A DNA stretch of 64,000 nt from Acidimicrobiaceae bacterium (GTDB lineage: Bacteria > Actinomycetota > Acidimicrobiia > Acidimicrobiales > RAAP-2), in assembly GCA_027306525.1 (NCBI GenBank), contig DAHUZM010000079.1, positions 244 through 64,243 on the forward strand, given 5' to 3'. The notes under the pieces were generated by a model. The model searched no databases. It was not told the DNA's origin and saw nothing but the letters and a program-made list of their open reading frames with translations. Position numbers and translations under genes: made by a program. Shown here in pieces: positions 41,973 through 63,765 of the stretch (its first letter is position 1; the number at the start of each line of letters is the position of its first letter).

Positions 41973-42045
41973 GGGGGTGTAGCTCAGTTGGCAGAGCGCT
42001 ACGTTCGCAACGTAGAAGTCGGCGGTTCGAGTCCGCTCACCTCCA
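41973..42045 (+). tRNA. tRNA-Ala (anticodon CGC)
   Basis: Hand-folded cloverleaf of 73 nt. Acceptor GGGGGTG/CACCTCC with the G3:U70 Ala identity pair. D arm GCTC-AGTTGGCA-GAGC. Anticodon arm CTACG-TTCGCAA-CGTAG. T arm GGCGG-TTCGAGT-CCGCT. Discriminator A. CCA is not fully encoded (ACCg). Confidence 0.93.
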
Positions 42046-42342
42046 CCGCAAGGTTTGGATTCGCGCGCCACTCCGCCATGGCGCGAGCCGCTGACGTGCA
42101 GCTTCGCGATCGCCCCTCGCGTTACCCACAGGGTTTATCGACGGAATTTATCGACGGCCTATCACGAGTGCCGTACGCAGCCCTATGCAGACGACCGCGC
42201 GCCACACCGCCAACACGCTGGAACCTTCGCGTAAAGTCGGCCTGGAAGGTGTGGCGGTGCCGTATGCAGCCCTATGCACGCCATGGCGGCCGCCATACTC
42301 AAGACTGACCTCCAAGCACTCGATCACGATGCACCTTCACCT

Positions 42343-43820: not shown

Positions 43821-44042
43821 ATGGCCAAGATCTCTACCAAGAATCAGGTCACTATCCCGGTCGCCGCGCTCGAAGAGGCCGGGCTGCACGCCGGCGATCA
43901 GGTCGTGGTCGAGGCGCTCGAAGAGGGGGAGCTGCGGGTCCGCCGCGGCGAGCTCGGCTTCGAGAGCGCGTTCGGCGTCCTCACCGGCGCCTACCCGCCG
44001 GGCTACCTGGAACAGCTCGACCGCGAAGACGCCGAGCGGTGA
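43821..44042 (+). CDS. vapB: AbrB/MazE/SpoVT-fold antitoxin (VapB-type)
   Basis: MAKISTKNQVTIPVAALEEAGLHAGDQVVVE... is a typical SpoVT/AbrB swapped-hairpin motif. GTGA overlap with the PIN gene. Confidence 0.8.
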   Translation: MAKISTKNQVTIPVAALEEAGLHAGDQVVVEALEEGELRVRRGELGFESAFGVLTGAYPPGYLEQLDREDAER

Positions 44043-44461
44043 CGGTCGTGCTCGACGCCGATGTCCTGATCGGCGCGCTCGACAACTCCGACACACATCA
44101 CACCCGAGCCCGCAGGCTCTTCGTCAGCTGGGAGCGCCGCAACGAGGCCCGGCTGCTGAGCGTCGTCAACCTGAGCGAGGTGCTAGTCGCGCCCGCCGCC
44201 GACCGGCGCAGGCTGCGGACCGCACGCGAGGCGATTGCCGCGCTCGGCATCACGATCCACCAACCGGGCGAGGCGATCGGCGTCGAGGCCGCCCGCCTGC
44301 GGAGTACGTATCCGATCAGCCTTCCCGACGCCTACTGCCTGGCGTCCGCCCGCCACGCCAGTGCCCGAGTCGCCTCCTTCGACGAAAGGGTGCTACGCGC
44401 TGCAGAGGGAGAAGGACTCGCCACCATCGAGACGGGCACGCGACGACCGCGGCCCCGCTGA
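44039..44461 (+). CDS. vapC: PIN-domain ribonuclease toxin (VapC)
   Basis: Acidic PIN residues in context: VLDADVL (D), NLSEVL (E), LPDAYCLA (D), SFD. Confidence 0.85.
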   Translation: MTVVLDADVLIGALDNSDTHHTRARRLFVSWERRNEARLLSVVNLSEVLVAPAADRRRLRTAREAIAALGITIHQPGEAIGVEAARLRSTYPISLPDAYCLASARHASARVASFDERVLRAAEGEGLATIETGTRRPRPR

Positions 44462-44696: not shown

Positions 44697-44799
44697 GAGC
44701 AGGCGGCCGCTATGGCGCCGCCATATGCAAGTTCGCCTACCAGCGGCTTTGCTCGATCAGAGGCGCGAATGCGCTGAAGCTATCGATGTCACCTCCACC
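44697..44799 (+). repeat. copy A of an approximately 100-bp repeat (palindromic core TATGGCG-C-CGCCATA at 44711-44725; ends in TCACCTCCACC)
   Basis: Hand alignment with 46691-46792 gives about 75-80 percent identity over about 100 bp. The last 11 nt equal the tRNA-Ala 3' end at 42037-42047. Confidence 0.8.
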
Positions 44800-45790
44800 A
44801 AATCGCCGTATTCAAGCTCGCAGAAAAGAGCAGGTCGAAGGGCGGGTGGTACCCCACTGTGGCGATCTTGCCGTCGCGCACGTCGATGCGAGTGAACACG
44901 GCTTGGTTGAACCGCCGCCGGGTTGGCGCCGACGCTCGCGCGTAGGCGGTGGCGCAGTTGGTGGCAAAGCGCATGGCGGTCTCCAAGATTTCCTGCCATT
45001 CGGCCAGGTGGGCGTCCACCGCGGCGAGGCGTTCTTCGGCGGCGCGGACGTCGGCGGCGATGCGGGCCTGCTCGGTCTTCAACGTGGTGACGTCGATGGC
45101 CGCGGCGTAGTAGGCGTCGAGCAACTTGCGCCGCTCGGTGTCGGCCTTGGCGAGCTTGCGGGTGAGGAACTCCCGTTCCGCCGCGTTGCGGTGCTGGCGG
45201 GCGGTGATCTCTGCTTCCAGTTCTTCGCGGAGGCGCTTGAGCCAGGACTTGGGGAGCTGAATGCGCTCGTAGAGCTGTTCGACTTGGGCTTCGAGGTCGC
45301 CGGCCGGCATGTAGGGCTCTTGGCAGCCGGTCGGGTTGCGGTTCTTCTGGCCTAGGCAGTACAGGTACTCGTAGCGGCCCTTGGCGAGCTGGAACGACAG
45401 TCCCCGCCCGCACACCCCGCAGAACAGGGTGCCCTTCAGGTAGTGGTTGTGCCGCCGCTCCCTCGTCCCGCGCGCGGCGCGGGCGGCGAGGAGGTCCTGG
45501 ACCTGGTTGAACGTGGCGGTCTCGGTGAGGGGTTGGTGCAGGCCGGGGTAGTCGATGCCTTCCGACGGGCCGGTCCCGCCGTCCGCGGTTGCGCAGCCCT
45601 CGGTGGTCGAGTTCGGCGACGAGGCGTTCGAGAGTCCACTCGCCGGTGGCGTACAACTCGAAGGCAGCGGTGATGTGGGGCGCGCGTTCGGGGTCCACCA
45701 CGATGTGGGCAACCTGCCGCCCGCTGATGGTCTCGCGGACGTTGGTGTAGCCGAGCGGGGTTGCCAGCACGTCGAGGGATGCCCCGGCGT
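44789..45790 (-). pseudogene. large serine recombinase pseudogene (recombinase + zinc-ribbon/coiled-coil domains; catalytic resolvase domain missing; at least one frameshift)
   Basis: Frame of ORF 44757..46025 encodes ATPLGYTNVRETISGRQVAHIVVDPERAPHITAAFELYATGEWTLERLVAELDHRGLRN. Frame of ORF 44789..45874 continues GLHQPLTETATFNQVQDLLAARA...HYLKGTLFCGVCGRGLSFQ...YLYCLGQ...GCQEPY, followed by a long coiled coil. No Ser-catalytic N-domain lies before vapB-2 at 46024. Confidence 0.8.
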
Positions 45791-46004
45791 CGTGTCGCTC
45801 GCCGACGTCCGCTTCGGTCGCGACACGGTGGCGGCATGGCTGCATGCTGCATTCCGTACCTGGCTCGGGCTCAAGACATTTCCGGCTCTGGGCCCGGCGG
45901 CTTGGAGCTGGCCAAGGGCAGAGAACTATGACGAACCGATCGCCAACTGAGTCGTACCGCCAGGACGACCGGGTGAGTTGCGGCCGTATGCAGATCGCAA
46001 CGGA

Positions 46005-46023: not shown

Positions 46024-46245
46024 ATGAGGACGATCTACCTTCGCAACGTGCCCGACGAAGTTGTCGAGCGCCTGGAACGGCTTGCCGCCCGTGAGCGGAT
46101 GTCGGTCGCGGCGGTAGCGGTGAGGGAGCTCGAGGAAGTCTCGCGCCGGGTGGACAACCCGGCGCTGCTGGGCGACCTGCCGGACCTGGGCATTGATCCG
46201 GTCTCCGTCGTCGCCGACGTGGAAGCGGGGCGCGCCGCGAGGTGA
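46024..46245 (+). CDS. vapB: ribbon-helix-helix antitoxin (FitA/VapB-like)
   Basis: [38 protein letters not shown] is a typical RHH/Arc-type N-terminus. GTGA overlap with the PIN gene. Confidence 0.75.
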
Positions 46246-46625
46246 TCGTCGTCGACGCGTCGGCGGCGGTCTCCGCGCTGCTCAACACTGGCCCTGCTCG
46301 TCGGGCATTGGCCGAGGAGCAGGTACATGTCCCTCACCTGATCGACCCCGAGGTCGCCAACGCCCTTCGCCGTGGGGTCGCTGCCTCCCGGGTCGAGCCT
46401 GGCGATGCATGGACCGCGCTCGGCCGGTGGCGCCGGCTCGGCATGTCGCGCTATGCCGTCTTCCATCTGCTGGAACGCGTGTGGGAGCTGCGGGAGAATC
46501 TCTCGGCCTATGACGCTTCGTATGTCGCGTTGGCCGAATCACTCGGCTGTGCACTGCTTACTGCGGACGTACGGCTTGCCAGAGCTCCGGGACTCCGCTG
46601 TCCGGTGACCGTGGTCCCCCGGTAG
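46242..46625 (+). CDS. vapC: PIN-domain ribonuclease toxin (VapC)
   Basis: [42 protein letters not shown]. Confidence 0.85.
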
Positions 46626-49740: not shown

Positions 49741-50478
49741 ATGATGGTCGACGTCCACCGATACCATGAGATAGCTGAGTCGACGCACCGGATCATGAAC
49801 CCGCTCACGCTCGAGCGCTTGATGCTCGTGGGTGAAATTTGCCGGCTGAATGCGGACTCGCGCATCCTCGACCTCGCCTGCGGGAAGGGGGAGATGCTCT
49901 GTCAGTTCGCGGCACATCTCGGTGCGACAAGCGTCGGGGTCGACGTCTACCCACCGGTGATCGCGAACGCCCGAGCTCGCGCCATCGAACTGGGAGTGGT
50001 AGACCGCGTCGAGCTCGTCGAAGCGGACGCCGCTGAACCCTTGGGCCTTGGGCAGTTCGACGTTGTCAGCTGCCTCGGAGCGAGCTGGATCGGCGGTGGC
50101 TTGGCCGGAACCCTCCAGATCATGACGGACTACGCCGGCGCGCGGGCGTGGCTGCTTGTCGGTGAGGTGTATTGGGCGCGCCCTCCTTCGACCGAACTGG
50201 CGACGCGCTATGGGCAAGAATTCGCTGACCTCGCTGGCACCCTCGACATCTTCGAGAATGCTGGTCTCGATCTTGTAGAGATGGTGCTCACCAACAGTGA
50301 CGACTGGGACCGCTATGCGGCAAGCCAGTGGCTGAACGTCGCAGACTGGCTGGATGCCAATGTGGACCACCCGGATGCCGCGGCTGTACGTGCCGAGCGG
50401 GACAACTCCCGCCGCCGCTACCTGACCGACGAGCGCGGAACCGTGGGTTGGGGCGTGTTCATCCTCCGTGCCCCGTAG
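49741..50478 (+). CDS. class I SAM-dependent methyltransferase
   Basis: Motif I ILDLACGKGEM, then VGVDVYPPVIANARARA, VELVEADA. Confidence 0.8.
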   Translation: MMVDVHRYHEIAESTHRIMNPLTLERLMLVGEICRLNADSRILDLACGKGEMLCQFAAHLGATSVGVDVYPPVIANARARAIELGVVDRVELVEADAAEPLGLGQFDVVSCLGASWIGGGLAGTLQIMTDYAGARAWLLVGEVYWARPPSTELATRYGQEFADLAGTLDIFENAGLDLVEMVLTNSDDWDRYAASQWLNVADWLDANVDHPDAAAVRAERDNSRRRYLTDERGTVGWGVFILRAP

Positions 50479-50800: not shown

Positions 50801-51868
50801 TCACCAACGGCGCGACTGTGTTGCGAGCAGTCTCGCCGTTGCTGCCTTGGCGAGCCGCAGTGCGCACTGCGGAGGGTAAGGCCACACCGCTTGAACATTG
50901 ATCTCACACAGGACAAAGGTGTCCTCGCCGGACGCCGCCTTGCTCCCATAGAGGAAGTCGGCGTCCCAAATGACTGGGAGTGCCTCGGTCGACAGTCCGA
51001 GGAGCCTCGTCATCTCGGGTACCCACTCGCGTTCTGCTTGCAAGCGGAGCGAGGCAAATGCAGGGGTGTCTGGATCGTCCATTGTCGGAACGGCCAGTGC
51101 GGCACTCTCGTCAACGTCGCTTGGGGCGAGCAAGCCCCGGGGCCATTGGTGGCAGAAACCCACGACCTCGTCATGGACGAAGTACGCCCGGATCATGCCC
51201 TCGGCCAGACGGTTCTGGTACGGCTGGTCGATGAGACAGCCGGACCACTCGAAATAGGCCTGACAGTCCTCGAGGAACGCCCCAAAGAACACCCCTTCGA
51301 GGGGTGTGGCGAGCCTGGGATCGGCGCGCTGCACGAGCACAAGATCCTTGGTGCTTGGCGTGCCCCCGGACCAGCCGCCGGGGAGCTGCAGCCTCCAAAC
51401 GCCTTTTCCACCGGTGCCGCGTGCCTGTTTCACAACCAGACGGCCGTATTGAGCCAACCGGCTCGGGAGGTGCGCGGCGAGGTCCTCCGGCGTGCGGTAA
51501 ATCGCGGTGTCGACGCCCCAGCCCAAATGCCGGGTGGAGAAGAGCACTTCCTTGGTGCCCATCGTGTCGATGACATCGGGATGGGCCGACACCCACACCC
51601 CATCGGCTGCGACGTCACGGAGCATTGCGTCGAGGAGCGCCCGATTGGCTCCTTCGTGAATGGGGTTGACCCAGACCAGCACGCCATCCAGCTCTAAGAG
51701 CTCGGCGCGCACTTCGGTGACGGCATCGTCGGCGTAGACGATATGTCGCGCCTCAACTTCTAGCTCAGCGAAGGCAGAGACGAGTGGGCCCAACATGGCA
51801 TCTGCTCGAGGAGAGACTGGTGCTTCCCTTTGTCCTCGCCAAAGCAAACCAATCCTTGCTACTGCCAC
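50801..51868 (-). CDS. ATP-grasp-fold-like protein (function unknown)
   Basis: 355 aa. GRLVVKQARGTGGKGVW and FVLCEINVQAV resemble ATP-grasp nucleotide- and Mg-binding segments. Assignment is tentative. Confidence 0.45.
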   Translation of the reverse strand: MAVARIGLLWRGQREAPVSPRADAMLGPLVSAFAELEVEARHIVYADDAVTEVRAELLELDGVLVWVNPIHEGANRALLDAMLRDVAADGVWVSAHPDVIDTMGTKEVLFSTRHLGWGVDTAIYRTPEDLAAHLPSRLAQYGRLVVKQARGTGGKGVWRLQLPGGWSGGTPSTKDLVLVQRADPRLATPLEGVFFGAFLEDCQAYFEWSGCLIDQPYQNRLAEGMIRAYFVHDEVVGFCHQWPRGLLAPSDVDESAALAVPTMDDPDTPAFASLRLQAEREWVPEMTRLLGLSTEALPVIWDADFLYGSKAASGEDTFVLCEINVQAVWPYPPQCALRLAKAATARLLATQSRRW

Positions 51869-51898: not shown

Positions 51899-52651
51899 TC
51901 AATGTCTAGTCGGCGCCCTCGTGTCGAGATGATGCGCAGTCAGTCCGTGAGGATCGATGTCTTCGGCGGAATGCGTTGGGTCTATGTGAATGGTTGCCGA
52001 GTCCAGACGGTGTACCTCATGGAGGAGACGGTGATGGGCTGTCTCGCCGATCGCGTGCGCTGCGGCGCTGAGCCGCCGAAGTGGGGCGGCCTCGGCGTGC
52101 AAGCTGCCATCGATCCACCTGAGCCGAACATGATCGACTCGGATTACGTGCTTCGCACTGGGCGAGCAGCCGCTCGACTTGATCCATCAGTGCAGGATCA
52201 ACCGCGTCCATCAGTCGACCGTAGATGTCTTGGGCTGCCCGATGAATGGCCAGAAGAATGACGCCGGTGATAAGAAGCCGAAGATCGGGTCGGCGGACTG
52301 CCAGCCCGCGACTACTCCGACCGCTCCGGCGACCAGTCCCAGCGACGACAATCCATCGGTCCGAGCGTGATGACCGTCGGCCTCCAATGCGGCTGATCCG
52401 GTTGGGCGTCCCACGACGATTCGGTACCGAGCGACGATCTCATTGCCGACAAACCCGATCATGCCCGCCGCCGCCACCCATCTGAAGTGGCTGAGATGCG
52501 TGGGATAGACGAGCCGATGGATGGCCTCGTAGCAGGCCAGTCCCGCCGATGCGACCACGAGCACGATAACGATGCCGGCTAGGTCCTCTGACCGACCGTA
52601 GTCGTAGGTGTAGCGCCGCGTGGGTGGGCGGCGACTCAGCCAGAACACCAC
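51899..52651 (-). pseudogene. cation diffusion facilitator (CDF) transporter pseudogene (N-terminally truncated, at least 2 frameshifts)
   Basis: Three successive frames carry collinear CDF segments. SRRPPTRRYTYDYGRSEDLAG...GSAALEADGHHARTDGLSSL...ADPIFGFL (52211-52651). MDAVDPALMDQVERLL (52017-52211). AHAIGETAHHRLLHEVHRLDSATIHIDP (51899-52102). Confidence 0.7.
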
Positions 52652-52847
52652 TGGGTGCGTCGTCTCTCGGTGGCGTGCTCGTGCTCGTGAAGCGAATCCA
52701 CCGACTGCATCACATGGATTCCGGTGTGGAGGGCCAACCGAGCACGTCGAGAGTCTTTTGCATCAGCCGAAGGATGCCTAAGGTTGACTCTTCCTACGGT
52801 ACCGTCAGATCTCTCACTGCGGGTTCGTGACGAGGAGGATGCCTCAA

Positions 52848-53258
52848 GTGGGCAACGACGAAAACCCCTCGACCCGGCCGGGCGACCCCGGGCGGTTTAC
52901 GCGCCAGAAGACGATCCTGCTTAAGACGAAAAAGCGTGACGGCACCTGGGTGGGTACGCCCGTGAGCATCGTCGTGGACCATGATCTCGCCTACGTCCGA
53001 ACCTACGACAGGTCCTGGAAGAGCAAGCGACTCCGCAATTTCCCCGAGGTACGTCTCGCGCCCTCTACGTTCCGGGGCAAGGCCACGGGCCAAGAGTTGC
53101 ATGCTCGGGCTCGCCTCTTGCACGGCCATGAAGCTGAGAAGGCGGCTCGACTTCTCGTCCGAAAATATCCTGTCCTGCACGGCTTCCTCGTACCGCTCTC
53201 GCACAAGGTGATGCGCACCAAGACGCTCCACTACGAGCTAAGTGGGTTCGCTCTTTAA
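52848..53258 (+). CDS. PPOX-class (pyridoxamine 5'-phosphate oxidase fold) probable F420-dependent enzyme
   Basis: KTILLKTKKRDGTWVGTPVSIVVDHDLAYVRTYDRSWKSKRLRNFPEVRLAPSTFRGKATG...EAEKAARLLVRKYP follows the small PPOX/F420 split-barrel family pattern. GGAGG lies 9 nt before GTG 52848; the track ORF starts at 52827. Confidence 0.65.
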   Translation: MGNDENPSTRPGDPGRFTRQKTILLKTKKRDGTWVGTPVSIVVDHDLAYVRTYDRSWKSKRLRNFPEVRLAPSTFRGKATGQELHARARLLHGHEAEKAARLLVRKYPVLHGFLVPLSHKVMRTKTLHYELSGFAL

Positions 53259-53649
53259 GGCGAGGACATCCGTCACCCAGCTTGCCCGTGATCGGTGCTG
53301 GCGAGGGACAGCAGCTCCGAGCCGGCCCGAGGCGTATCGTCTGTGACGAGCAGAGATTGGCGCCTCGGGCGAGTTTCGACCAGGCACTCTCGCCACGGAA
53401 CTCCGAAAGGCGTCGAGCACGGTTTCATTTGCTCGTCCTGGGGACCGTTGGATTGTGGCGATGTCCTGCAACTGCGGGGCCCGCGCTCCACCTCGATCCA
53501 GGGGGCGACGATACGGCGGGGCCCAAGTGGGATGGAGCCGGCTGTCGAAGTCGGGTAGCCCGATCGTCACCTGATCCGAGACGGATTGGGCCGCTGCCAG
53601 GGGACATTCGGCCCTGGCATTCAGCCCCAGGAGGTCGTCTGCTGTAACG

Positions 53650-54423
53650 ATGATCCAAAATCTCGGGGTCCGGCCGGCCAGTCGGCTCCGCCCCTACAAC
53701 CTGGTCGCTGCCACGTTGCATACGGCGCAGGCCATCACCGTCGTGGTCTTCGCCAACAACTTTTCCTTACCCGTTCGGGCGACCTACATGACCGGGCCTC
53801 CTGGCCCTGGAGTCGGCAGACGGCCCTTCACCCTGTTCGAGCTGCGGTTCTCGTGGGCGGTGGCTGCCTTTTTTGCCCTCTCGGCGCTGGCACATCTCGT
53901 GGTCGCCGGTCCTGCATGGCGCTCGTATCTGGCACAACTAGAGATGCACCGGAACCCTTATCGGTGGCTCGAGTACTCCCTCAGTGCATCGATAATGCTT
54001 GTGCTCATCGCCATGCTCGTTGGCATCGACGATATCGCCGCCCTTGTCGCACTGGTTGGCGTCAACGCGTCGATGATCGGCTTCGGCTGGCTTCAGGAGC
54101 GCTACGAGTCTCCCGGCGGGAGGCTCGTTCCCTTCTGGCTCGGCTGCGTAGCCGGCGCCGTACCGTGGGCGGCTATCGGGATCTACCTGGCTGGACCTGG
54201 CGCCGATCTTCACCCGCCGGGTTTCGTGTACGCGATCTTCGGTTCTTTGTTCGTCGCGTTCAACTGCTTTGCCATCAATCAATGGCTGCAATACCGCCAA
54301 GTCGGGCGATGGCGTGAGTACGTCGTGGGAGAGCGGGCTTACGTGACACTTTCCCTGGTGGCGAAGAGCCTCCTGGCATGGCAGATTTTTGCCTCGACGC
54401 TGGCATCCGCAGCGGCGCATTGA
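53650..54423 (+). CDS. heliorhodopsin (retinal-binding 7-TM photoreceptor with inverted topology)
   Basis: 257 aa, 7 hydrophobic segments, collinear with the remembered HeR-48C12 sequence. Matching blocks: ANNFSLPVRATYMTGPPG, RWLEYSLSASIMLVLIA, GVNASMIGFGWLQERY, LVPFWLGCVAGAVPWAAIGIY, PGFVYAIFGSLFVAFNCFAINQWLQY, GERAYVTLSLVAKSLLAWQIF. Lys239 in TM7, Glu108, His24 and His82 are at the expected positions. Confidence 0.9.
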   Translation: MIQNLGVRPASRLRPYNLVAATLHTAQAITVVVFANNFSLPVRATYMTGPPGPGVGRRPFTLFELRFSWAVAAFFALSALAHLVVAGPAWRSYLAQLEMHRNPYRWLEYSLSASIMLVLIAMLVGIDDIAALVALVGVNASMIGFGWLQERYESPGGRLVPFWLGCVAGAVPWAAIGIYLAGPGADLHPPGFVYAIFGSLFVAFNCFAINQWLQYRQVGRWREYVVGERAYVTLSLVAKSLLAWQIFASTLASAAAH

Positions 54424-54741
54424 TCCCGGCGATCCCACGCACGGCGATGTCGAATCGCGATTGCCCCTTAGTTCGCCGATCCGTCTTGACTCATGAGACG
54501 ATTCGGCCGCGCTCGGCCTTAGCGTTCGGATCCCGAGGCTTCGATCCCTACTCTCCGTTCCTCGGCAGAGCCAGGTTGCTGAGCCGACCCGGATCTTGCC
54601 GAGATCTAGGGGCGCACACATGCGACCCGTCGAACCCAGTCCAGCCATCCCGGGCCCCCGAGAAGATCGTCGATGGGGAGACGAGCGTCTGGACGCGGCG
54701 TGGAGCCGCCAAAGGCGTGGGCCGTTCGCCTCTGGTGGTCG

Positions 54742-57528
54742 ATGACCCGAGTGCTCGACACTGGTCTCGTAGCCACCGAAAGGCCGCGCGAGGTGTCTGA
54801 CCACAGCGCCGTCACGAGCCCAGCAACACCCTCGACGGCCGCTGACCCACACCACGCGCTTGCAACCCACCAGGTTGTCCTGCTTCTCGAAAGCGATCTG
54901 TCGAATGGGCTCTCCACCCATGAAGCCCGCACGCGTCTGGCTCGTTTCGGATCGAACGAGCTTCCGCGGGCTGCGGCGTCCTCGCCGATCGTGCGACTCG
55001 CTCGTCAAGTGCATCATCCGCTCGTCTACGTCCTGGTCGCCGCCGGGTCGCTCACCCTCGCACTGGGGAACCATGTCGATGCCGGGGTCATCTTTGGCGT
55101 GGTTGTGCTGAACGCCATCGCCGGCTTCGTCCAAGAGGCAAAGGCCGAGGCGGCCTTGGAGGCCCTGAGGTCGCTGGTCAGGACCGAAGCCAGGGTCCGC
55201 CGCGACGGCGACTTGCGGACGGTTCCTTCGACCGAGCTGGTTCCCGGCGATGTCGTGCTCGTTGAGGCAGGCGACAAGGTGCCCGCCGACTTGCGTCTCG
55301 TGGCCGTCGGCGACGTCCAGGTGGACGAGTCCTTGCTCACCGGAGAGTCGATGCCGGTGTCCAAAGCTGAGGTCGTGCTGCCGATGGCAACCCCGGTGAA
55401 CGACCGCTCCAACATGCTCTACTCGAGCACGCTCGTCACCAAGGGCCGGGGGACCGGCGTCGTGGTAGCTACCGGTGCCGAGACAGAGGTGGGCGAAATC
55501 CACCGGTTGGTCGGCTCGGCCGATGAGCTCGCCACCCCGCTCACTCGAAAGCTGGCGCGCTTCAGCACGATCCTGACAGCGGTAATCCTTGGACTTGCCG
55601 CGTTGACGTTTGCGGTGGGCATGATCCGGGGTGAGGGCGCTGCCGCGATGGTGGGCGCTGCGGTTGCGCTCGCGGTGGGAGCGATTCCCGAGGGCCTGCC
55701 CGCCGCCATGACCATCACCTTGGCCATCGGGGTCACCCGCATGGCCCGCCGCCGGGCCGTGGTGAGGCGCATGCCGGCCGTCGAGACCCTCGGGAGCACC
55801 ACGGTCATCTGCTCCGACAAGACCGGCACTTTGACCGAGAACCAGATGACAGTCCAGGCGGTGTGGACGCCCGGGCGTACATACGAGGTGACTGGCATCG
55901 GGTACCGGCCCGACGGAGTCCTCCTCGGGACGAACCACACGCCAGCGAACACGAAGGAGGACCACGCCCTCGAGTGGACGGTCACCGTCTCGGCCGCCTG
56001 CAACGACGCCCACCTTTCGATGGCGGGGGAGCGCTGGGAGGTCACCGGCGATCCGACAGAGGGAGCACTGCTCGTGCTGGCGAGCAAGGCCGGCTTCGAC
56101 ACCACGGAATGGGCCGCCCGGTTCCCGCGGGAGGCGACGGTGCCCTTCAGCTCCGAGTCTCAATGCATGGCGACGGTGCACGGGGCCGGGGATCGCCGAC
56201 TGCTGTTGGTGAAGGGGGCGGCGGAGAGGCTCGTCGCTTTGTGCTCGTTCCAGATGCAAACCGACGGATCCAGGGCTCCCCTGGACGAGGCGGCGGTGCT
56301 TCAGGCAGCCGACGCGCTCGCCGGGAACGGCTTTCGGGTGCTGGCCACGGCCGTTGGCACGATGCGACGGAGCGAACTGTTCGACGTCGGTCAGCGCCAT
56401 GGAGACCTCGCGTTGACCGGCCTCGTGGGGATGTTGGACCCGCCGCGTCCAGAGGCGATCGCCGCTGTGCAGACCTGCCACCGGGCCGGCATCGACGTGA
56501 AGATGATTACCGGTGACCACCCGACGACCGCGACGGTGGTCGCCGAGAGGATGGGCATCGGCAAGCCGGGAGACAGCGGTGCGCTGACCGGCGCGGAGCT
56601 CGCCGAGCTCGCGACCTGGGAGTTCCCCGCCGCGGTCGAGCGCTCCTCGGTGTTTGCAAGGGTCACTCCGGAGCAGAAGCTGCGCCTGGTCCAGGGACTC
56701 CAGTCCCGAGGCCACGTGGTGGCGATGACCGGCGACGGGGTGAACGACGCGCCGGCCCTTCGTCAGGCGGACATCGGGGTTGCGATGGGGAAGGGCGGGA
56801 CCGAGGTCGCCAAGGACGCTGCGGACATGATCTTGACCGATGACGACTTCGCCACCATCGAAGCCGCGGTCGAGGAAGGACGCGGCATCTTCGACAACCT
56901 CACGAAGTTCATCGCGTGGACACTGCCCACCAATATGGGCGAGGGGTTGGCGGTTCTCGTTGCGATCCTGCTGGGCACGACCTTGCCCCTCATGCCCGTT
57001 CAGATCCTCTGGATCAACATGACGACTGCAGTCGCGCTGGGCCTCATGCTCGCATTCGAGCCGAAGGAGGTCGATGTCATGGAGCGGCCTCCGCGCGATC
57101 CGGGTCGGCCGCTGCTGACCGGTGTCCTCATCCTTCGAGTGCTCCTGATGTCGGCGATCTTGGTGGGAGGTGCAATGTGGCTTTTCCATTGGGAAAGATC
57201 GAGCGGTGCACCGATCGCCGAGGCAAGGACGTCTGCCCTCAATTTCTTCGTAACAACCGAGGCCTTCTACCTCTTCGCTTGCCGGTCCCTCACACGCTCT
57301 GTCTGGCAGATCGGCGTGCTCTCGAACCGCTGGGTTCTGGGCGGCGTGGCGCTGCAGGCGCTCGGACAGGTGGCGATCACCTATGTCCCGGCCTTCAACT
57401 CCCTGTTTGGCACGGCGCCAATCGGTGCTGGCGCCTGGGTGCGCCTACTGCTCGTTGCGGCGGGGAGCTCGGTGGTGGTCGCATTCGACAAGAAGATCCG
57501 GCGGTCGATCGCTCTCCGAGTCCGATGA
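54742..57528 (+). CDS. P-type cation-transporting ATPase, P2 (Ca2+/cation, PEGL motif) type
   Basis: TGES, TM4 IPEGLPA, phosphorylation site CSDKTGTLTENQMTV, TGDHPTTA, MTGDGVNDAPALRQADIGVAMG. Start ATG 54742 or GTG 54793; the track ORF starts at 54673. Confidence 0.9.
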   Translation: MTRVLDTGLVATERPREVSDHSAVTSPATPSTAADPHHALATHQVVLLLESDLSNGLSTHEARTRLARFGSNELPRAAASSPIVRLARQVHHPLVYVLVAAGSLTLALGNHVDAGVIFGVVVLNAIAGFVQEAKAEAALEALRSLVRTEARVRRDGDLRTVPSTELVPGDVVLVEAGDKVPADLRLVAVGDVQVDESLLTGESMPVSKAEVVLPMATPVNDRSNMLYSSTLVTKGRGTGVVVATGAETEVGEIHRLVGSADELATPLTRKLARFSTILTAVILGLAALTFAVGMIRGEGAAAMVGAAVALAVGAIPEGLPAAMTITLAIGVTRMARRRAVVRRMPAVETLGSTTVICSDKTGTLTENQMTVQAVWTPGRTYEVTGIGYRPDGVLLGTNHTPANTKEDHALEWTVTVSAACNDAHLSMAGERWEVTGDPTEGALLVLASKAGFDTTEWAARFPREATVPFSSESQCMATVHGAGDRRLLLVKGAAERLVALCSFQMQTDGSRAPLDEAAVLQAADALAGNGFRVLATAVGTMRRSELFDVGQRHGDLALTGLVGMLDPPRPEAIAAVQTCHRAGIDVKMITGDHPTTATVVAERMGIGKPGDSGALTGAELAELATWEFPAAVERSSVFARVTPEQKLRLVQGLQSRGHVVAMTGDGVNDAPALRQADIGVAMGKGGTEVAKDAADMILTDDDFATIEAAVEEGRGIFDNLTKFIAWTLPTNMGEGLAVLVAILLGTTLPLMPVQILWINMTTAVALGLMLAFEPKEVDVMERPPRDPGRPLLTGVLILRVLLMSAILVGGAMWLFHWERSSGAPIAEARTSALNFFVTTEAFYLFACRSLTRSVWQIGVLSNRWVLGGVALQALGQVAITYVPAFNSLFGTAPIGAGAWVRLLLVAAGSSVVVAFDKKIRRSIALRVR

Positions 57529-57725: not shown

Positions 57726-59492
57726 TTAGGTCGGATTCGGTGTTGGCGCGGTCGGCCGAACGCCGGGGGCACAGGCCCTTGGATCCCATGGCTCGAGACT
57801 GGTGATAGCGGGGCTCGGGGCAGCGATCGCACCGGCGGCAGATCCAGAAGCAGCCGGCACAATTGTTGTCAATGTCGTCGTCGACGTCCCTGATGTCGTC
57901 GGGATACCGGGTCCAGAGGGAGCGTTGACGGAGAACTGTGAACCTGTGACCACTGTGACCTGAGCGCCGTCAACCACTTCCGCGGGGTCATACGCCATCA
58001 CGACTGCGCCGGACATCGACCGAGCGACCGATTCCGCCGCGGCCTCATCCGCCCCTGTCCGCGATCCGTAGTAGACGTAGGTTTCCTGGACATCACCGAC
58101 GGGCGCGGTGTCGCCAACACCAAGAACGTGGAAGCCGAGGGTGCCGAGAGCGTCTGCAGTGGTGCTGGCCTGGTTGTAGGCACCTGTACCGTTGAGCACC
58201 GATACCGACACCGAGGAGGGCGATGGAAGCGGGCTTCCGGTCATCGAGTCGGTGTTCGCTCCGATGCCGAGCAGCTGATCGACAGCCGAGAGGTCCTGTG
58301 ACTCGGCCGGGAACTCGACGTCGCCGTAGCTATACCCCTTGTACATGAGCGAGCCACCCACGCCCGCCGGGTCAGAGACCACTTGCACCGGGAGAGTGAG
58401 CTGCGGAACCGAACTGAGATTGATCGAGTGAAGGTCGAGAACGAGATGAACCATGTCGCTCACAGACCACGATTGATCAAACGTCAGATCGGCCTTAACT
58501 GAGTTGATCAGGTTCAGATCCGTGACGGGATTGCCGAGCCCCCGATTAGCCATGGCTGCGGCGAGGACCCGTAGGAATTCATGGTCGCGCCGGATGCGGG
58601 CAAGGTCACTCAGCCCTTCTTGGGGCCACGAGTAGGGGTCGTTCGGATTCGACTGAGGCGTTTCATGGCGTAGATGACGCGCCCTGACGACTTGAAGGGC
58701 TTGGGTGCCGTTCAGGTGCACGCAGGCCGCGGCACGCTGGTTGAGCCCCGAACTCACTGGTTGGTCCCCGTTGACGCCACCACCAGTCGGAGCCCAATCG
58801 AAAACCGAGATTGGAAAGGACATGTTGAGACCACCTAGCGCATCAACGATGTTGGCGAATTGGTCGAAGTCGAGCGAGACGGCATGTTGGATCGGTATGC
58901 CGAAGTCCTCTTCGATCGAAGCGACAAGCTGCGAGAGGCCCTCGTAGAGGCCTGCATCGATCTTGTTGGCGCCCGTGGTGCGGGCGTTCGGAATGAAGAG
59001 ATCCCGCGGTATGGAGAGCAATGCCAGGCGATGTTTCGCCGGATCGGCGTGCAGAATCATGATCACGTCGCTGTTGACTCCGGTGACACCCTGTGAGCAC
59101 AGGCCGTACGCGGGGTTTTGAACCGCGAGTGCGCAGCGGGACGTGGAACCGACCATCAGGATGTTTTCGGTCCCGAGTTCCCTTCCTGCGACAAACGCCG
59201 GACGAAGTCCTCGGACCGTCTGACGCCGTAGGTCGTGAGCGAGGTAGTAGATGTATCCGGCACCGGCCAACACCACCACCATCACGGTCGCGACGACGAT
59301 CAGAACCCATCTGCGCCAACGGTGAACGCGGCGGCTGCCCGTATGACGTGCTCTGCTCCTCGTGCTCGCGTGATTCGCTCGGCGCGCCGGCCGGCCTGCG
59401 CTCTTGTTGTGTATGTCCAGCTCTCGACCGAGAGCATGAAGACCATCCAAGCGATCCTTCGGCGTGATTTCATCGCGGCTGTGTCTAGGCAT
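57726..59492 (-). CDS. LytR-CpsA-Psr (LCP) family cell-envelope phosphotransferase with C-terminal LytR_C domain
   Basis: N-terminal TM. LCP core (NILMVGS...SDVIMILHADPAKHRLALLSIPRDL...IQHAVSLDFDQFANIVDALGG). LytR_C (VSVSVLNGTGAYNQASTTADALGTLGFHV). Confidence 0.85.
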   Translation of the reverse strand: MPRHSRDEITPKDRLDGLHALGRELDIHNKSAGRPARRANHASTRSRARHTGSRRVHRWRRWVLIVVATVMVVVLAGAGYIYYLAHDLRRQTVRGLRPAFVAGRELGTENILMVGSTSRCALAVQNPAYGLCSQGVTGVNSDVIMILHADPAKHRLALLSIPRDLFIPNARTTGANKIDAGLYEGLSQLVASIEEDFGIPIQHAVSLDFDQFANIVDALGGLNMSFPISVFDWAPTGGGVNGDQPVSSGLNQRAAACVHLNGTQALQVVRARHLRHETPQSNPNDPYSWPQEGLSDLARIRRDHEFLRVLAAAMANRGLGNPVTDLNLINSVKADLTFDQSWSVSDMVHLVLDLHSINLSSVPQLTLPVQVVSDPAGVGGSLMYKGYSYGDVEFPAESQDLSAVDQLLGIGANTDSMTGSPLPSPSSVSVSVLNGTGAYNQASTTADALGTLGFHVLGVGDTAPVGDVQETYVYYGSRTGADEAAAESVARSMSGAVVMAYDPAEVVDGAQVTVVTGSQFSVNAPSGPGIPTTSGTSTTTLTTIVPAASGSAAGAIAAPSPAITSLEPWDPRACAPGVRPTAPTPNPT

Positions 59493-59955: not shown

Positions 59956-60570
59956 TCAGGGTCTCGTTGCGAGCACGCTCACGGTCGATCTTCGCCCTTC
60001 GGTGTGTTTGCTGGTCGTGATGTTGACAAATCCGAGATTGCGGCACAGTTCGGCGAACGTCGCCGCTTGGGCCTCTGTCCATCCGTGACTCGCGAGACCG
60101 CGGGCGCCCGCTTGCGTGTGACGTTCGATGGCTACGAACCGACCGCCATCTCGTAGCACCCGGTGCACCTCACGCAGTCCGGCGTCGAGGTCGGTCCAAT
60201 GGTGCACCGTCGCGAGGGACCACACAACCGTTGCGGACGCTTCGGGCAGTGGAAGGGCCTCGGCCACGCCCTCGATGTAACGGACCTCCCGCCGGTGTGC
60301 CGTGAGCAAGCGAGCCGTTCGCAGCATGACGGCGGCCGGGTCGACACCAGTGACCGACGCACCGAGGGAGGCCGCGTAGCGAGCGGCCGCACCAGGCCCA
60401 CAGCCAAGGTCCACCACCACGTCACCTCGGGATAGACCGGTCAAGCGCCCTGCCAAGCGGGCGTCGCCCCCTCGTCCGGCGGCCATGCTCAGCGCGGCGA
60501 CAAGCCCGGAGAATCCGGAGAACCCGGGGTGTTGCGCGTGGTGGTTAGGGACACTCGCCTGGTCGGACAC
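59956..60570 (-). CDS. class I SAM-dependent methyltransferase
   Basis: Motif I VVDLGCGPGAAARY, then VTGVDPAAVMLRTA. GTG start at 60570. Divergent from the MerR gene. Confidence 0.8.
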   Translation of the reverse strand: MSDQASVPNHHAQHPGFSGFSGLVAALSMAAGRGGDARLAGRLTGLSRGDVVVDLGCGPGAAARYAASLGASVTGVDPAAVMLRTARLLTAHRREVRYIEGVAEALPLPEASATVVWSLATVHHWTDLDAGLREVHRVLRDGGRFVAIERHTQAGARGLASHGWTEAQAATFAELCRNLGFVNITTSKHTEGRRSTVSVLATRP

Positions 60571-60578: not shown

Positions 60579-60608
60579 CTTGACAGTTGAAGCTGGGTTC
60601 AAGTCAAG
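60579..60608 (+). promoter_or_regulatory. imperfect palindrome, candidate MerR-type operator in the divergent methyltransferase/merR region
   Basis: CTTGAC-AG-TTGAA-GCTGGG-TTCAA-GTCAAG. Outer 6-bp and inner 5-bp arms are perfect; there is a 2-nt bulge on the left. Confidence 0.4.
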
Positions 60609-61081
60609 TGTTCATCGTGTCCGAGACGCTCCTCACCATCGGCGAGGCCGCCGAGCGTGCCCAGGTGGCGACCTCCACCATCCGTTACTACGAGCGGCGA
60701 GGCCTCCTGGTGCCCGATGCCAGGGTGTCCGGACAACGGCGCTACCGGGAATCCACTCTCCGCCGGCTCATCTTCATCGGCATGCTGCAGGACGCTGGCC
60801 TCGCTCTCGACGACATCGACGGGATCTTGCGCGCGGCCGACGTCGCCGAGTGGAAGGAGATCGCGGCTCGCCGGCTCGCCGCCCTCGACGGGGAGATCGC
60901 CCGGCTGGGGCGAGCTCGCGCGTACCTCGCCGGTGCGTTGCGGTGTCGCTACGACCACCCTGCAACCGACTGCGAGGTCATGGGGGCTGAGATCGACCGA
61001 CGCCTCGCCACCCACGTCAAGGGGACTCGTTCGGAGGGAACGATCACCGAGGACGTGGGCCCGAAGTCGCGTCGTTCGTAA
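60587..61081 (+). CDS. MerR-family transcriptional regulator
   Basis: HTH LTIGEAAERAQVATSTIRYYERRGLL...GQRRY and a coiled-coil dimerisation helix. C-terminal Cys pair (RCRYDHPATDC). The true start may be GTG 60608 or 60617. Confidence 0.85.
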   Translation: MKLGSSQVFIVSETLLTIGEAAERAQVATSTIRYYERRGLLVPDARVSGQRRYRESTLRRLIFIGMLQDAGLALDDIDGILRAADVAEWKEIAARRLAALDGEIARLGRARAYLAGALRCRYDHPATDCEVMGAEIDRRLATHVKGTRSEGTITEDVGPKSRRS

Positions 61082-61395: not shown

Positions 61396-63765
61396 ATGGC
61401 CTCGGCGTCGGAGCCTCGCGATCAAGATGCTGACGATTCCCCGGTCGGACTGACGGAGGCCGAGGCCGCCGACCGCCTGGCCCGCGTCGGTCCGAACGCT
61501 CTCGAAGGGGAGCGTCGGCACCTGGTTCGTCGGCTGGCTCGAAAGCTCACAGGCCCGGTTCCCTACCTCCTCGAGGCCGCCGTGGTCCTGGAGCTCGCCG
61601 TAGGGAAGGGCATCGAGGCGAGCATCGTCGGCGCACTGATCGTCTTCAACGGGGTCCTGAGCTTCATCCAAGAGGGTCGTGCGGCGAGCGCTTTGGCGCT
61701 CTTGCGAAGCCGACTCGCGGTCCAGGCACGGGTGCGGCGTGATGGCCGTTGGCGGCTGGTCGACGCCGAACGGCTCGTCCCGGGTGACATCGTGCATGTC
61801 CGTGTGGGCGACATCGTCCCTGCTGACGTCGCGCTGGCCACCGGGTCGGTGTCCGTCGATCAATCGGTCCTCACTGGCGAATCCGCGGACGTAGAGGTGG
61901 TCCCCGGCGGATCGTGCTACTCGGGGTCCATCGTCCGACGGGGTGAGGCGACCGGTGAGGTCACGGCCACCGGATCACGCACTTACTTCGGACATACGGC
62001 CGAGCTCGTCCGGACAGCGAAGACGGCCAGTCACCTCGAAGAGACGATCTTCAAGATCGTTTGGGCCCTGCTCGCGCTCGACGGAGGCCTCGTCGTGGCG
62101 ATTCTCGCCTACGGGCTCATCACCCATCTTCCGGCGGACGAACTGGTGCCCTTCGTCCTCATCTTGGTCGTGGCGACGGTGCCGGTTGCATTGCCTGCGA
62201 CCTTCACCCTCGCCACCTCCGTGGGCGCACTTGAGCTCGCGCACGCCGGGGTCCTCGTCACTCATCTGGCGGCCATCGAGGAAGCGGCAGCAATGGACCT
62301 TCTCTGCACCGACAAGACGGGCACCATCACCGAGAACCGCCTCTCGGTGGTCGCCGTGCACCCCTTCGGGCGGCACGATGAGCGAGACGTGCTCGCCCTG
62401 GCAGCGGTGGCATCCGACGAGGCGACCCAAGACCCCATCGACCTCGCCATCTTGCAAGCCGCGGGTCACACGGGAGCGCCGAGGGTTGGCCCGCGCCTCG
62501 GCTTCATTCCCTTCGACCCAGCGACGAAACGCTCGGAGGCCACCGTGCAAGTCGCCGGGGCCGAGCTGCGGGTGGTGAAGGGCGCTCCGGCGGTGGTCGG
62601 GGCGCTCGCCGGAGCGCGGAACCCACCGCCGGCATCGCTCGAGGCTGCGGTGGGCGAGCTCGCAGCCGGGGGTGCCCGGGTCCTGGCCGTCGCGAGTGGA
62701 CGAGGCATGCTCGAAGTCGTCGGTCTGCTGGCTCTTGGTGATCCCCTCCGTCCGGACTCCAGAGGCCTCGTCGAACGCCTCGACGCCCTCGGGGTCCGTG
62801 TCGTCATGGTCACAGGAGACGCTGCCCCGACGGCGCTCGCTGTCGCCAAGCAGGTCGGGATCGGGGAGCGCCTCGGTGAGTTGGAGGCGCTGCGCGCTCG
62901 CCGGACCGGCGAGATCGACTTTGACGTCGCGGCGGGTGTCCTTCCCGCCGACAAGTTGGCGCTCGTCGAACGCGGCCAGCACGCCGGCCATGTCGTCGGA
63001 ATGACCGGTGACGGAGTCAACGATGCTCCGGCTCTCAAGCGGGCAGAGGTCGGGATCGCGGTGTCGAGTGCGACCGACGTCGCGAAGGAGGCTGCGAGCC
63101 TCGTCCTCACCGGCGAGGGACTCTCCAACGTCGTCGCAGCCATCGAGACGGGGCGTCGGGTGTATCAACGGATGCTGACCTACACGCTGAACAAGATCGC
63201 CAAGACCTTCCAGGTGTCGCTCTTCCTCGGTGTGGGACTCCTCGCGACGGGGACATTCGTCACGACGCCGCGCCTTGTGCTCCTGTTGCTGTTCGCGAAC
63301 GACTTCGTCACGATGTCGCTTGCCACCGACCGCGTCGGCTTCTCGCCGCGCCCGGATCGCTGGCGGGTGCCGGCCCTCTCGTTCTCGGCGCTTGGTGTTG
63401 CCATCCCCTGGCTCTTCGCCTCCTTCGCCACCTTCTTCGTCGGGCGTGATGTCCTGCATCTCGAGATGGCGGCTGCCCAGACACTCGTCTTCGTGATGCT
63501 CGTGGCGACCGGGCAGGCCACCGTGTACCTCGTTCGAGAGCGGGGTCACCTCTGGTCGTCGCCTCCGAGCAGCTGGATGCTCGCAGCGACCGGCCTCGAT
63601 CTCGTCGTGGTGACGGTGCTCGCCACGCGAGGCGTCCTTATGGCTGCAGTCCCGCTCTTGGACGTCATCGTTCTCCTCGCCTCGCTGCTCGCGCTCACGG
63701 TCGGACTCGATTATCTGAAGGGTCCACTGCTCGGCCGGGTGCGCACCGAATCGACGCCTCTATGA
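61396..63765 (+). CDS. P-type ATPase, P3A-like (plasma-membrane H+-ATPase-like) cation pump
   Basis: TGES (LTGESADV), TM4 VPVALPA, CTDKTGTITENRLSV, MVTGDAAPTA, GMTGDGVNDAPALKRAEVGIAV. 789 aa with about 10 TM. Confidence 0.88.
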   Translation: MASASEPRDQDADDSPVGLTEAEAADRLARVGPNALEGERRHLVRRLARKLTGPVPYLLEAAVVLELAVGKGIEASIVGALIVFNGVLSFIQEGRAASALALLRSRLAVQARVRRDGRWRLVDAERLVPGDIVHVRVGDIVPADVALATGSVSVDQSVLTGESADVEVVPGGSCYSGSIVRRGEATGEVTATGSRTYFGHTAELVRTAKTASHLEETIFKIVWALLALDGGLVVAILAYGLITHLPADELVPFVLILVVATVPVALPATFTLATSVGALELAHAGVLVTHLAAIEEAAAMDLLCTDKTGTITENRLSVVAVHPFGRHDERDVLALAAVASDEATQDPIDLAILQAAGHTGAPRVGPRLGFIPFDPATKRSEATVQVAGAELRVVKGAPAVVGALAGARNPPPASLEAAVGELAAGGARVLAVASGRGMLEVVGLLALGDPLRPDSRGLVERLDALGVRVVMVTGDAAPTALAVAKQVGIGERLGELEALRARRTGEIDFDVAAGVLPADKLALVERGQHAGHVVGMTGDGVNDAPALKRAEVGIAVSSATDVAKEAASLVLTGEGLSNVVAAIETGRRVYQRMLTYTLNKIAKTFQVSLFLGVGLLATGTFVTTPRLVLLLLFANDFVTMSLATDRVGFSPRPDRWRVPALSFSALGVAIPWLFASFATFFVGRDVLHLEMAAAQTLVFVMLVATGQATVYLVRERGHLWSSPPSSWMLAATGLDLVVVTVLATRGVLMAAVPLLDVIVLLASLLALTVGLDYLKGPLLGRVRTESTPL

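Follow-up and report, generated by a model that had tools for sequence, protein, structure and literature searches.

The window, by which the whole analysed stretch of 64,000 nucleotides is meant, contains an ORF assigned to the heliorhodopsin family, which is preceded by two conserved sequence blocks and followed by a P-type ATPase gene. The features of the locus are collected in Table 1. A preliminary description, made from the letters alone, had placed a full-length gene for a heliorhodopsin of 257 residues here, and its coordinates, length and ATG start proved accurate. An in-frame stop codon precedes this ATG, which is the first possible start, and a longer version of the ORF is thereby ruled out. 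CTG and GTG starts further upstream were rejected, as they are out of frame or lead straight into a TAA codon.

Table 1. Features of the heliorhodopsin locus, with positions counted from the first nucleotide of the window.
Feature	Position	Strand	Remarks
Heliorhodopsin CDS, 48C12-like subfamily 1	53650..54423	+	257 aa plus stop; profiles, PDB, Foldseek
Upstream element GGACATTCGGCCCTGG (subclade consensus GGACGTTCGGCCCTGG)	53602..53617	+	48 nt before the start codon
AGGAGG, Shine-Dalgarno-like	53629..53634	+	15 nt before the ATG; read from the sequence
Second conserved block GTCTGCTG (subclade consensus GTGTGCTG)	53637..53644	+	6–13 nt before the start
His24 codon CAT	53719..53721	+	48C12 H23; invariant among relatives
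His82 codon CAT	53893..53895	+	48C12 H80; invariant among relatives
Glu108 codon GAG, Schiff-base counterion, helix 3	53971..53973	+	48C12 E107; invariant among relatives
Lys239 codon AAG, retinal Schiff-base lysine, helix 7	54364..54366	+	48C12 K241; invariant in 79 aligned relatives
F420-dependent PPOX-class oxidoreductase, upstream neighbour			391-nt gap to the heliorhodopsin gene
Type-II P-type ATPase, downstream neighbour	54673..57528	+	249-nt gap to the heliorhodopsin gene
Truncated cation-efflux (CDF) gene fragment	52211..52651		1 kb upstream of the heliorhodopsin gene
MerR regulator	60587..61081		6 kb from the heliorhodopsin gene; directly upstream of another ATPase

The assignment is carried by two family models, both of which are matched over their entire length and well above their curated cut-offs. 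The Pfam heliorhodopsin profile PF18761 aligns from position 1 to 242 of 242 with an E-value of 3.5e-94 (315 bits, threshold 26.7), and the NCBIfam HeR equivalog NF038020 from 1 to 244 of 244 with 306 bits (cut-off 100). The Bac_rhodopsin profile PF01036 yields only a partial match (E 0.034) of 14 bits, below its gathering threshold of 24.6, so that profiles for type-1 rhodopsins miss the gene, as had been predicted. Among solved structures, 6su3 (HeR-48C12) aligns in full length with an E-value of 4.1e-76 and 51% identity over 249 aligned residues, and 6is6, a heliorhodopsin from a Thermoplasmatales archaeon, with an E-value of 2e-52. The six sequence blocks quoted earlier as evidence of collinearity with HeR-48C12 all recur verbatim in the HMMER alignment to 6su3. 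It is virtually certain that the ORF encodes a genuine and intact heliorhodopsin; the protein is apparently functional.

The residues expected of the family are in place. The codons named earlier for the Schiff-base lysine and the counterion are correct, and both residues, as well as the two histidines, align with the 48C12 positions that had been proposed for them. Further aligned pairs between the window protein and 48C12 are S235/S237, N102/N101, R105/R104, E150/E149, Q211/Q213 and E228/E230. All 61 columns that are conserved to at least 95% among the relatives are kept, and at the 85% level the sole deviation is F34, where the majority has leucine. The subfamily-1 markers in the Kovalev classification, as summarised in PMC9529153, are Leu202 (48C12 numbering), Ala168, Pro172, Ile142 and Gln213. 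The window protein carries L200 at 48C12 position 202, A168, P172, I143 for Ile142 and Q211 for Gln213, and by these sequence markers it is a member of the bacterial 48C12-like subfamily 1.

Seven hydrophobic segments had been noted, and the secondary structure of an AlphaFold2 model agrees, with helices at residues 13–35, 67–86, 105–124, 129–152, 160–181, 190–216 and 221–256. Helices 1 and 2 are joined by a loop that forms a β-hairpin with strands at 40–47 and 57–65. Confidence in this model is low (mean pLDDT 60.6, pTM 0.51; shallow alignment of 38 close homologues), so the evidence for the fold rests mainly on sequence, and identity to solved structures already settles it. In the structural comparison suggested earlier, the best ten PDB matches of the predicted structure in Foldseek were all heliorhodopsins (TM-score 0.71–0.75, E 6e-17 to 1e-13), while type-1 rhodopsins in the same search reached E-values of 1e-2 or higher, TM-scores of 0.4–0.53 and identities of 11–16%. 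Loops of the N-terminal face contain six lysine and arginine residues in all, the three short segments of the opposite face contain none, and four more lie in the 31-residue hairpin loop. This distribution is consistent with a cytoplasmic N-terminus, as a rule of thumb only.

Upstream of the gene lies an element of 14–17 nt, GGACGTTCGGCCCT(GG), which lies 44–49 nt (in most cases 48) ahead of the start codon and is confined to the heliorhodopsin subclade of the window protein. It is present in 14 related loci with unrelated upstream genes and travels with the gene across unrelated contexts; it is absent 5' of more distant heliorhodopsin genes. The window copy has one substitution, which is shared with locus L086. 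The element forms an imperfect palindrome, GGGACG-TT-CGGCCC. It could be an operator, a promoter or part of the 5' leader, and it probably governs expression of the heliorhodopsin gene from which it lies 48 nt upstream; it is a small new item of this analysis. In the second conserved block, G38, T42 and T47 of alignment A2 are invariant and G48 is nearly so. The spacing between AGGAGG and the ATG is longer than usual, and in the relatives a purine-rich stretch lies nearer to the start codon.

Several readings of the upstream element were tried. A riboswitch or structured leader was dropped, because RNAalifold gave no consensus fold (−0.51 kcal/mol, four pairs, essentially no covariation) and Rfam had no match to the element at E-values up to 1. 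A scan for sigma-70 promoters at the element returned no match, and an ECF-type promoter was rejected since the spacings do not fit, as judged by eye against sigma-factor consensus sequences. The T-N4-T block that ends at −7 does not have the A that is conserved at position 2 of a −10 hexamer. The idea of a wider regulon was likewise rejected, as matches with at most one mismatch lie almost exclusively upstream of heliorhodopsin genes; the exceptions are two identical one-mismatch sites, in L011 and L053. Chance appears to explain the matches with two mismatches, of which the window has just one other in an intergenic position, at 63896.

The heliorhodopsin gene stands alone between the two intergenic gaps given in Table 1. 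No published partner gene is adjacent, and the window neighbours scanned include no gene for a glutamine synthetase, NAD+ synthetase, photolyase, ABC transporter, TerC, SDR, α/β hydrolase, DUF2177 or DUF2238 protein; nor does any partner gene adjoin in the same orientation so as to form one predicted transcription unit with the heliorhodopsin gene. Conserved synteny was rejected, as a tblastn search with 20 window neighbours in 80 related genome loci gave only sporadic matches to the P-type ATPase and CDF genes. When the neighbours were clustered all against all, no family was present in more than 7 of the 80 loci; a cluster spanning 61 loci merely reflects the shadow ORF antisense to the heliorhodopsin gene itself. 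A mobile cassette was rejected too, because conservation does not extend past the heliorhodopsin stop codon. Between the heliorhodopsin and ATPase genes no canonical terminator was matched, and folding gave a z-score of −0.14. The heliorhodopsin gene appears to be transcribed on its own and its neighbours are not conserved in relatives; a partner cannot be named from the locus.

The heliorhodopsin could be a light-dependent modulator of the neighbouring P-type ATPase or of cation homeostasis more broadly. The ATPase gene is the next one downstream and has the same orientation, and in L005, whose heliorhodopsin is 81% identical, a 57.5% identical P-type ATPase adjoins in divergent orientation. 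P-type ATPases are also found within 6.5 kb in L041, L075 and L010, and CDF genes near the heliorhodopsin in L081 and L001 as well as in the window. Zn2+ binding by heliorhodopsins has been published (cited in PMC9529153), and a heliorhodopsin that modulates an ABC transporter provides a precedent (PMC11109279). Nevertheless, a P-type ATPase occurs within 10 kb in only 4 of the 80 genome loci, an excess of at most two- to threefold over a rough estimate of genome frequency for a category picked after the data had been seen. Most close relatives (L001–L004, L008, L012, L019, L082–L089) have no ATPase nearby, and P-type ATPases are not among the ten recurrent neighbour groups of 448 heliorhodopsin loci (PMC11109279). 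Both the spacing of 249 nt and the presence of a conserved 5' element of its own speak against an operon of the heliorhodopsin gene with the ATPase. Modulation of the ATPase is judged very unlikely, and equally doubtful is the joint proposal that the subclade light-modulates P-type ATPases or cation homeostasis while an undescribed regulator binds the palindrome. The neighbourhood of the ATPase pair in L005 is otherwise unrelated to that of the window.

The surroundings also bear on whether the gene is active in its host. The region from 42 to 64 kb has a GC content of 0.654, compared with 0.700 in the core, and third-codon-position GC is 0.74 in the heliorhodopsin gene, 0.69–0.82 in the surrounding region and 0.84–0.95 in the core genes of the window. 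This flexible region begins at a tRNA-Ala gene, an integration hotspot, with the heliorhodopsin gene downstream, and contains an rve-type integrase/transposase, a recombinase fragment and two PIN-toxin modules; a 3' 11-mer of the tRNA-Ala is repeated twice within it. Because of the lower third-position GC and the richness in mobile elements, the gene may be a recent acquisition of uncertain expression. A stronger version, in which it is a recently transferred passenger of a genomic island, silent or non-functional in its host, for example for want of retinal, could also draw on the truncated CDF gene nearby and on the absence of retinal and carotenoid biosynthesis genes from the approximately 40 scanned of about 60 window ORFs. 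However, such genes usually lie elsewhere in the genome, so that their absence from 64 kb means little. The ORF is intact with every highly conserved residue kept, the upstream element is intact but for the substitution also seen in L086, the heliorhodopsin has its closest relatives in the class to which the host belongs, and the two repeat-bounded modules already end at 46792, before the gene. A silent or non-functional passenger is regarded as very unlikely.

By analogy with characterised relatives, the window heliorhodopsin would bind all-trans retinal at Lys239, run through a slow photocycle without pumping ions, and act as a light sensor or regulator of a partner protein. A light-driven conformational change would be passed on to the partner through the basic cytoplasmic loops (R92, R101, R151, R158, R216, R220, R222). 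Regulation of partners through contacts of the cytoplasmic loops has been described for heliorhodopsins (PMC9529153, PMC9769723, PMC11109279), and the bacterial members tested have long-lived photointermediates and show no pumping (PMC11109279, PMC9529153). Ion transport, as in the viral proton transporter V2HeR3, has some basis in the fact that some viral heliorhodopsins move protons (summarised in PMC12873467 and PMC11109279), but is scarcely credible for a protein of the bacterial 48C12-like subfamily 1, which keeps the conserved hydrophobic residues of the extracellular half, including L200, F204 and A208, and whose tested bacterial relatives do not pump. The sensor or regulator mechanism, taken on its own, is favoured with modest confidence. 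When it is blended with the intact heliorhodopsin into a single judgement, the explanation as a whole is considered highly probable.

The window heliorhodopsin is routine and already known, and its family is large and well profiled. NCBI already contains an identical protein (P0001, 100%), close homologues bear the name "heliorhodopsin HeR [Acidimicrobiales bacterium]", the candidates scored include more than 5,000 homologues with E-values of 1e-10 or better, and structures have been solved for six distinct heliorhodopsin sequences. Dedicated Pfam and NCBIfam models exist, so that routine annotation finds the gene. Heliorhodopsins are abundant in Actinobacteria, and several functions have been shown experimentally since 2022: AbHeR, TfHeR and OcHeR regulate glutamine synthetase, photolyase and the ABC exporter OmrDE (PMC9529153, PMC9769723, PMC11109279). 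The observation made in the preliminary description stands in every detail; only its importance was overstated. Its view that every new genomic context is informative does not hold here either, as the context is idiosyncratic and the neighbours are not common to the relatives. As it stands, the find matters little and adds one stand-alone heliorhodopsin in a flexible genome region, in agreement with the variable ("promiscuous") contexts that have been published. Of modest use to specialists are the conserved upstream element, as a handle for finding the regulator of the subclade, and the adjacency to a P-type ATPase, which is seen again in one other relative.

HeR-48C12, the founding heliorhodopsin (PDB 6su3, 6su4, 6uh3, 9ljj), was found on a freshwater actinobacterial fosmid. 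It has the key residues, the seven helices, the β-hairpin between helices 1 and 2 and the subfamily-1 markers in common with the window protein, although about half of the residues differ. Gly144 in the window protein corresponds to L143 in 48C12, and Ala113 to S112; Gly144 is nearly invariant in the subclade of the window protein. In contrast to 48C12, the host is a high-GC actinobacterium of the Acidimicrobiia/Acidimicrobiales type, and the scanned ORFs neighbouring the gene include no glutamine synthetase gene. AbHeR, TfHeR and OcHeR belong to the same family, and the basic residues of their partner-binding cytoplasmic loops are also kept in the window protein (PMC9529153, PMC11109279). Their genes share an operon with the partner, whereas no such partner is present among the window neighbours scanned. 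Type-1 rhodopsins such as bacteriorhodopsin and proteorhodopsin are likewise seven-helix retinal proteins with a lysine in helix 7, but their topology is opposite to that of heliorhodopsins, the structural resemblance is weak, and the window protein stays under the PF01036 threshold. A further comparison is provided by heliorhodopsins of uncultured Acidimicrobiaceae and Acidimicrobiales (P0002–P0021; L001–L012, L019, L081–L087), which are 255–258 residues long and 77–86% identical. Their neighbouring genes are almost entirely unlike those of the window; the same element GGACGTTCGGCCCT precedes their heliorhodopsin genes. The closest named relatives of the heliorhodopsin and of AtpD both come from metagenome-assembled genomes of Acidimicrobiales/Acidimicrobiia.

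The window contains an intact heliorhodopsin gene in which every conserved functional residue of the family is kept. The ORF starts with ATG, encodes 257 aa and shows a coding-type GC pattern over the three codon positions (0.64/0.49/0.74). Its gene model is unambiguous, because no in-frame start codon lies further upstream. The Pfam profile PF18761 (Heliorhodopsin) matches residues 13-251 over its full 242 positions with an E-value of 3.5e-94, and with 306 bits the protein passes the cut-off of 100 set for the NCBIfam equivalog NF038020 "heliorhodopsin HeR". PDB sequences of HeR-48C12, the founding heliorhodopsin (6su3, 6uh3, 9ljj), are matched by residues 8-257 with E-values of 4e-76 to 5e-75, followed by the heliorhodopsin of a Thermoplasmatales archaeon (6is6, E 2e-52). 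As the preliminary description had stated, the type-1 rhodopsin profile PF01036 misses the gene, with 14 bits being below its cut-off of 24.6. This has no practical weight, since heliorhodopsins have curated profiles of their own.

The protein was compared in one alignment with 48C12 and with 78 translated heliorhodopsins of related genomes. It is fully collinear with 48C12, with an identity of 51% over 249 residues, and it has the conserved residue in each of the 61 columns with at least 95% conservation. These include (window/48C12) K239/K241, E108/E107, H24/H23, H82/H80 and S235/S237, as well as N102/N101, R105/R104, E150/E149, Q211/Q213 and E228/E230. The sole deviation among columns conserved to at least 85% is F34, where the majority residue is leucine. 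The protein also has all subfamily 1 markers, which in 48C12 numbering are L202, A168, P172, I142 and Q213 (classification as summarised in PMC9529153). The codons of His24 (53719-53721), His82 (53893-53895), Glu108 (53971-53973) and Lys239 (54364-54366) lie where they had been assigned beforehand, and all six 48C12 blocks quoted there agree exactly with the PDB sequence. The preliminary description is correct in both observation and interpretation.

An AlphaFold2 model, for which 38 close homologues were used, is of low confidence (mean pLDDT 60.6, pTM 0.51) and displays seven long helices, the first two being joined by a loop with a beta-hairpin. Its ten best Foldseek matches in the PDB are heliorhodopsin structures (E 6e-17 to 1e-13, TM-score 0.71-0.75), while type-1 rhodopsins appear only from E 1e-2 with TM-scores of 0.4-0.5. 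The loops on the N-terminal face carry six Lys and Arg residues, the three short segments on the opposite face none, and the 31-residue hairpin loop four. This distribution is compatible with the N-terminus-inside topology of heliorhodopsins, although it is only indicative.

Characterised bacterial relatives (PMC9529153, PMC9769723, PMC11109279, PMC8612252) suggest how the protein may work. Retinal would be bound at K239 with E108 as the counterion, and a slow photocycle without ion pumping would be expected. Light may then regulate a partner via basic cytoplasmic loops; in the window protein, the predicted cytoplasmic loops carry R92, R101, R151, R158, R216, R220 and R222.

This heliorhodopsin is an ordinary member of its family and is already deposited in NCBI. 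Among 8,000 candidates scored, 5,041 proteins matched at E ≤1e-10. An identical protein (P0001) is encoded on an NCBI contig of 72,132 bp, and the next homologues are 81-86% identical; several close relatives are named "heliorhodopsin HeR [Acidimicrobiales bacterium]". The top matches among species-representative genomes (72-85%) belong to Acidimicrobiaceae/Acidimicrobiia metagenome-assembled genomes. The closest named relatives of the window AtpD (21118..22572) are likewise from Acidimicrobiales/Acidimicrobiia (85-92% identity); therefore, the affinity of the gene agrees with the host class. One homologue, in the related locus L069 (~9760-10524), is 77% identical, matches residues 81-255 only and has an in-frame stop within the translated match; it may be a pseudogene or stem from misassembly.

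The first 42 kb of the window are core chromosome, including rho, prfA, a Sua5/TsaC-family gene, glyA, atpD, murA, sulfate-assimilation genes and a SepX/GlpR-like gene. After tRNA-Ala(CGC), GC drops from 0.700 to 0.654, and third-codon-position GC is 0.69-0.82 in 42048-64000 versus 0.84-0.95 in the core genes, which also exceed the heliorhodopsin ORF in this respect. Such values point to a flexible region or to horizontal acquisition; the right edge of the region lies beyond the window end (64000). Genes of mobile elements come after the tRNA. The 3' 11-mer of the tRNA, TCACCTCCACC, is repeated at 44789-44799 and 46782-46792 (chance expectation 0.02 copies), and the ~140 nt before the two copies are also homologous (repeat families D1 and D3). 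The repeats are read as the ends of two small tandem integrated modules behind the tRNA, each with a PIN-toxin gene. As a whole, 41973-46792 resembles a hotspot of integration at a tRNA gene in which the integrative elements have decayed. The heliorhodopsin gene is located 7 kb past these modules, yet inside the lower-GC stretch.

Features of the window and of related heliorhodopsin loci (L handles)
Sequence	Feature	Coordinates	Strand	Remark
Window	tRNA-Ala(CGC)	41973..42047		
Window	rve-type integrase/transposase	42629..43741	-	
Window	PIN-toxin gene	44039..44461		
Window	Large serine recombinase	44789..45874	-	truncated fragment
Window	PIN-toxin gene	46242..46625		
Window	Methyltransferase	49741..50478	+	
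Window	Cj0069-family/DUF6815 protein	50801..51868	-	
Window	CDF cation-efflux gene	52211..52651	-	146 aa, profile positions 46-177 of 198; probably a truncated pseudogene
Window	F420-dependent PPOX-class oxidoreductase	52827..53258	+	TIGR03666, 108 bits vs 84.9
Window	Both upstream blocks	53600-53644		
Window	First upstream block	53602-53617		GGACATTCGGCCCTGG
Window	Heliorhodopsin	53650..54423	+	
Window	Antisense ORF	53938-57189	-	1,083 aa
Window	Type-II P-type ATPase	54673..57528	+	best to PMR1/SERCA-type Ca2+ models, below their equivalog cut-offs
Window	LytR-CpsA-Psr protein	57726..59492	-	
Window	Methyltransferase	59956..60570	-	
Window	MerR regulator	60587..61081	+	
Window	Type-IIIA proton-efflux P-type ATPase	61396..63765	+	TIGR01647, 628 bits vs equivalog cut-off 615.5
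Window	GGTCGTTCGACCCTGG site	63896-63911		
L001	Upstream element	200-213		
L002	Upstream element	3609-3622		
L003	Upstream element	9920-9933		
L004	Upstream element	4707-4720		
L005	P-type ATPase	7130-9784	-	
L005	Heliorhodopsin	10001-10774	+	
L008	Upstream element	9943-9956		
L012	Upstream element	9936-9949		
L083/L084/L085	Upstream element	5953-5966		
L083	ABC-2-type transporter	3733-5634		
L086	ABC-2-type transporter	2394-4929		
L086	Upstream element	4973-4986		
L087	Upstream element	4952-4965		

Gaps of 391 nt and 249 nt flank the heliorhodopsin gene. A sequence scan around it found no consensus promoter or intergenic terminator, and the 249-nt downstream spacer folds no better than shuffled sequence. 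No genes for carotenoid/retinal biosynthesis, photolyase or glutamine synthetase were found among the ~40 of ~60 window ORFs scanned. The antisense ORF overlaps the heliorhodopsin 3' end and the whole adjacent ATPase gene; equivalent shadow ORFs clustered across 61 related loci, and it was rejected as a real gene and taken as a high-GC artefact. Further downstream, the MerR regulator gene lies directly 5' of the second ATPase gene, whose plasma-membrane-type proton-efflux class is apparently uncommon in bacteria.

Comparison of the window gene with 11 relatives from unrelated contexts revealed a conserved upstream element. The upstream regions lack similarity until ~50 nt before the start codon, where a non-coding block GGACGTTCGGCCCT(GG) begins; ~20 variable nt follow, and then a second block, GTGTGCTG, 6-13 nt before the start. 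Copies that are exact or have one mismatch occur 44-49 nt upstream (usually 48) in L001-L004, L008, L012, L019 and L083-L087, and diverged copies in L005 and L082. Despite unrelated upstream genes, both blocks are limited to a heliorhodopsin subclade of at least 77% identity. The block is absent from genes of at most 76% identity (L006, L007, L009-L011, L053) and from L088 and L089 (76-77% identical, longer N-termini). The core is an imperfect palindrome, GGGnCG-NN-CGnCCC; neither a consensus RNA structure nor an Rfam family match was found for the element, and no conservation past the stop codon was found in related loci. In this subclade it probably serves as an operator or lies close to a promoter. 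The GGTCGTTCGACCCTGG site resembles the element, from which it differs by two mismatches, and is a perfect 5-2-5 palindrome (GGTCG-TT-CGACC). It is intergenic, 3' of the second ATPase gene, and an ATG follows after ~55 nt at 63966, near the window end.

A link of the heliorhodopsin to the adjacent P-type ATPase, combined with a dedicated regulator that targets the upstream element, is very improbable. The pairing recurs in one other close relative only, the metagenome-assembled Acidimicrobiaceae locus L005 (heliorhodopsin 81% identical), where an ATPase 57.5% identical to that of the window is directly adjacent and divergent in an otherwise unrelated neighbourhood. This recurrence is a weak hint, because only 4 of 80 loci have any P-type ATPase within 10 kb of the heliorhodopsin gene. 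When 20 window neighbours were compared with the 80 loci, counterparts were found only for the ATPases and the CDF fragment, and clustering of all flanking ORFs yielded no family in more than seven loci.

The closest relatives each have a different neighbourhood. L081 and L082 feature an HtrA-like protease, a transposase, a toxin-antitoxin pair and two CDF genes, and L084 a methyltransferase together with a 1,167-aa protein that no Pfam family matches. In L081 and L001, intact pairs of CDF genes are found at a distance of 2-7 kb from the heliorhodopsin gene. In L083 and L086, the heliorhodopsin gene is immediately preceded, in the same orientation, by genes for an ABC-2-type transporter (ATPase and permease), and an F420H2-dependent quinone reductase is encoded a few kb further upstream. 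ABC transporters of another type make up one of the published heliorhodopsin neighbour groups. The window heliorhodopsin has none of the ten recurrent groups of PMC11109279 next to it. Heliorhodopsin neighbourhoods are described as highly variable (PMC8612252), with ~61% of the genes predicted to be transcribed alone (PMC11109279), and the variable contexts found here agree with this picture.
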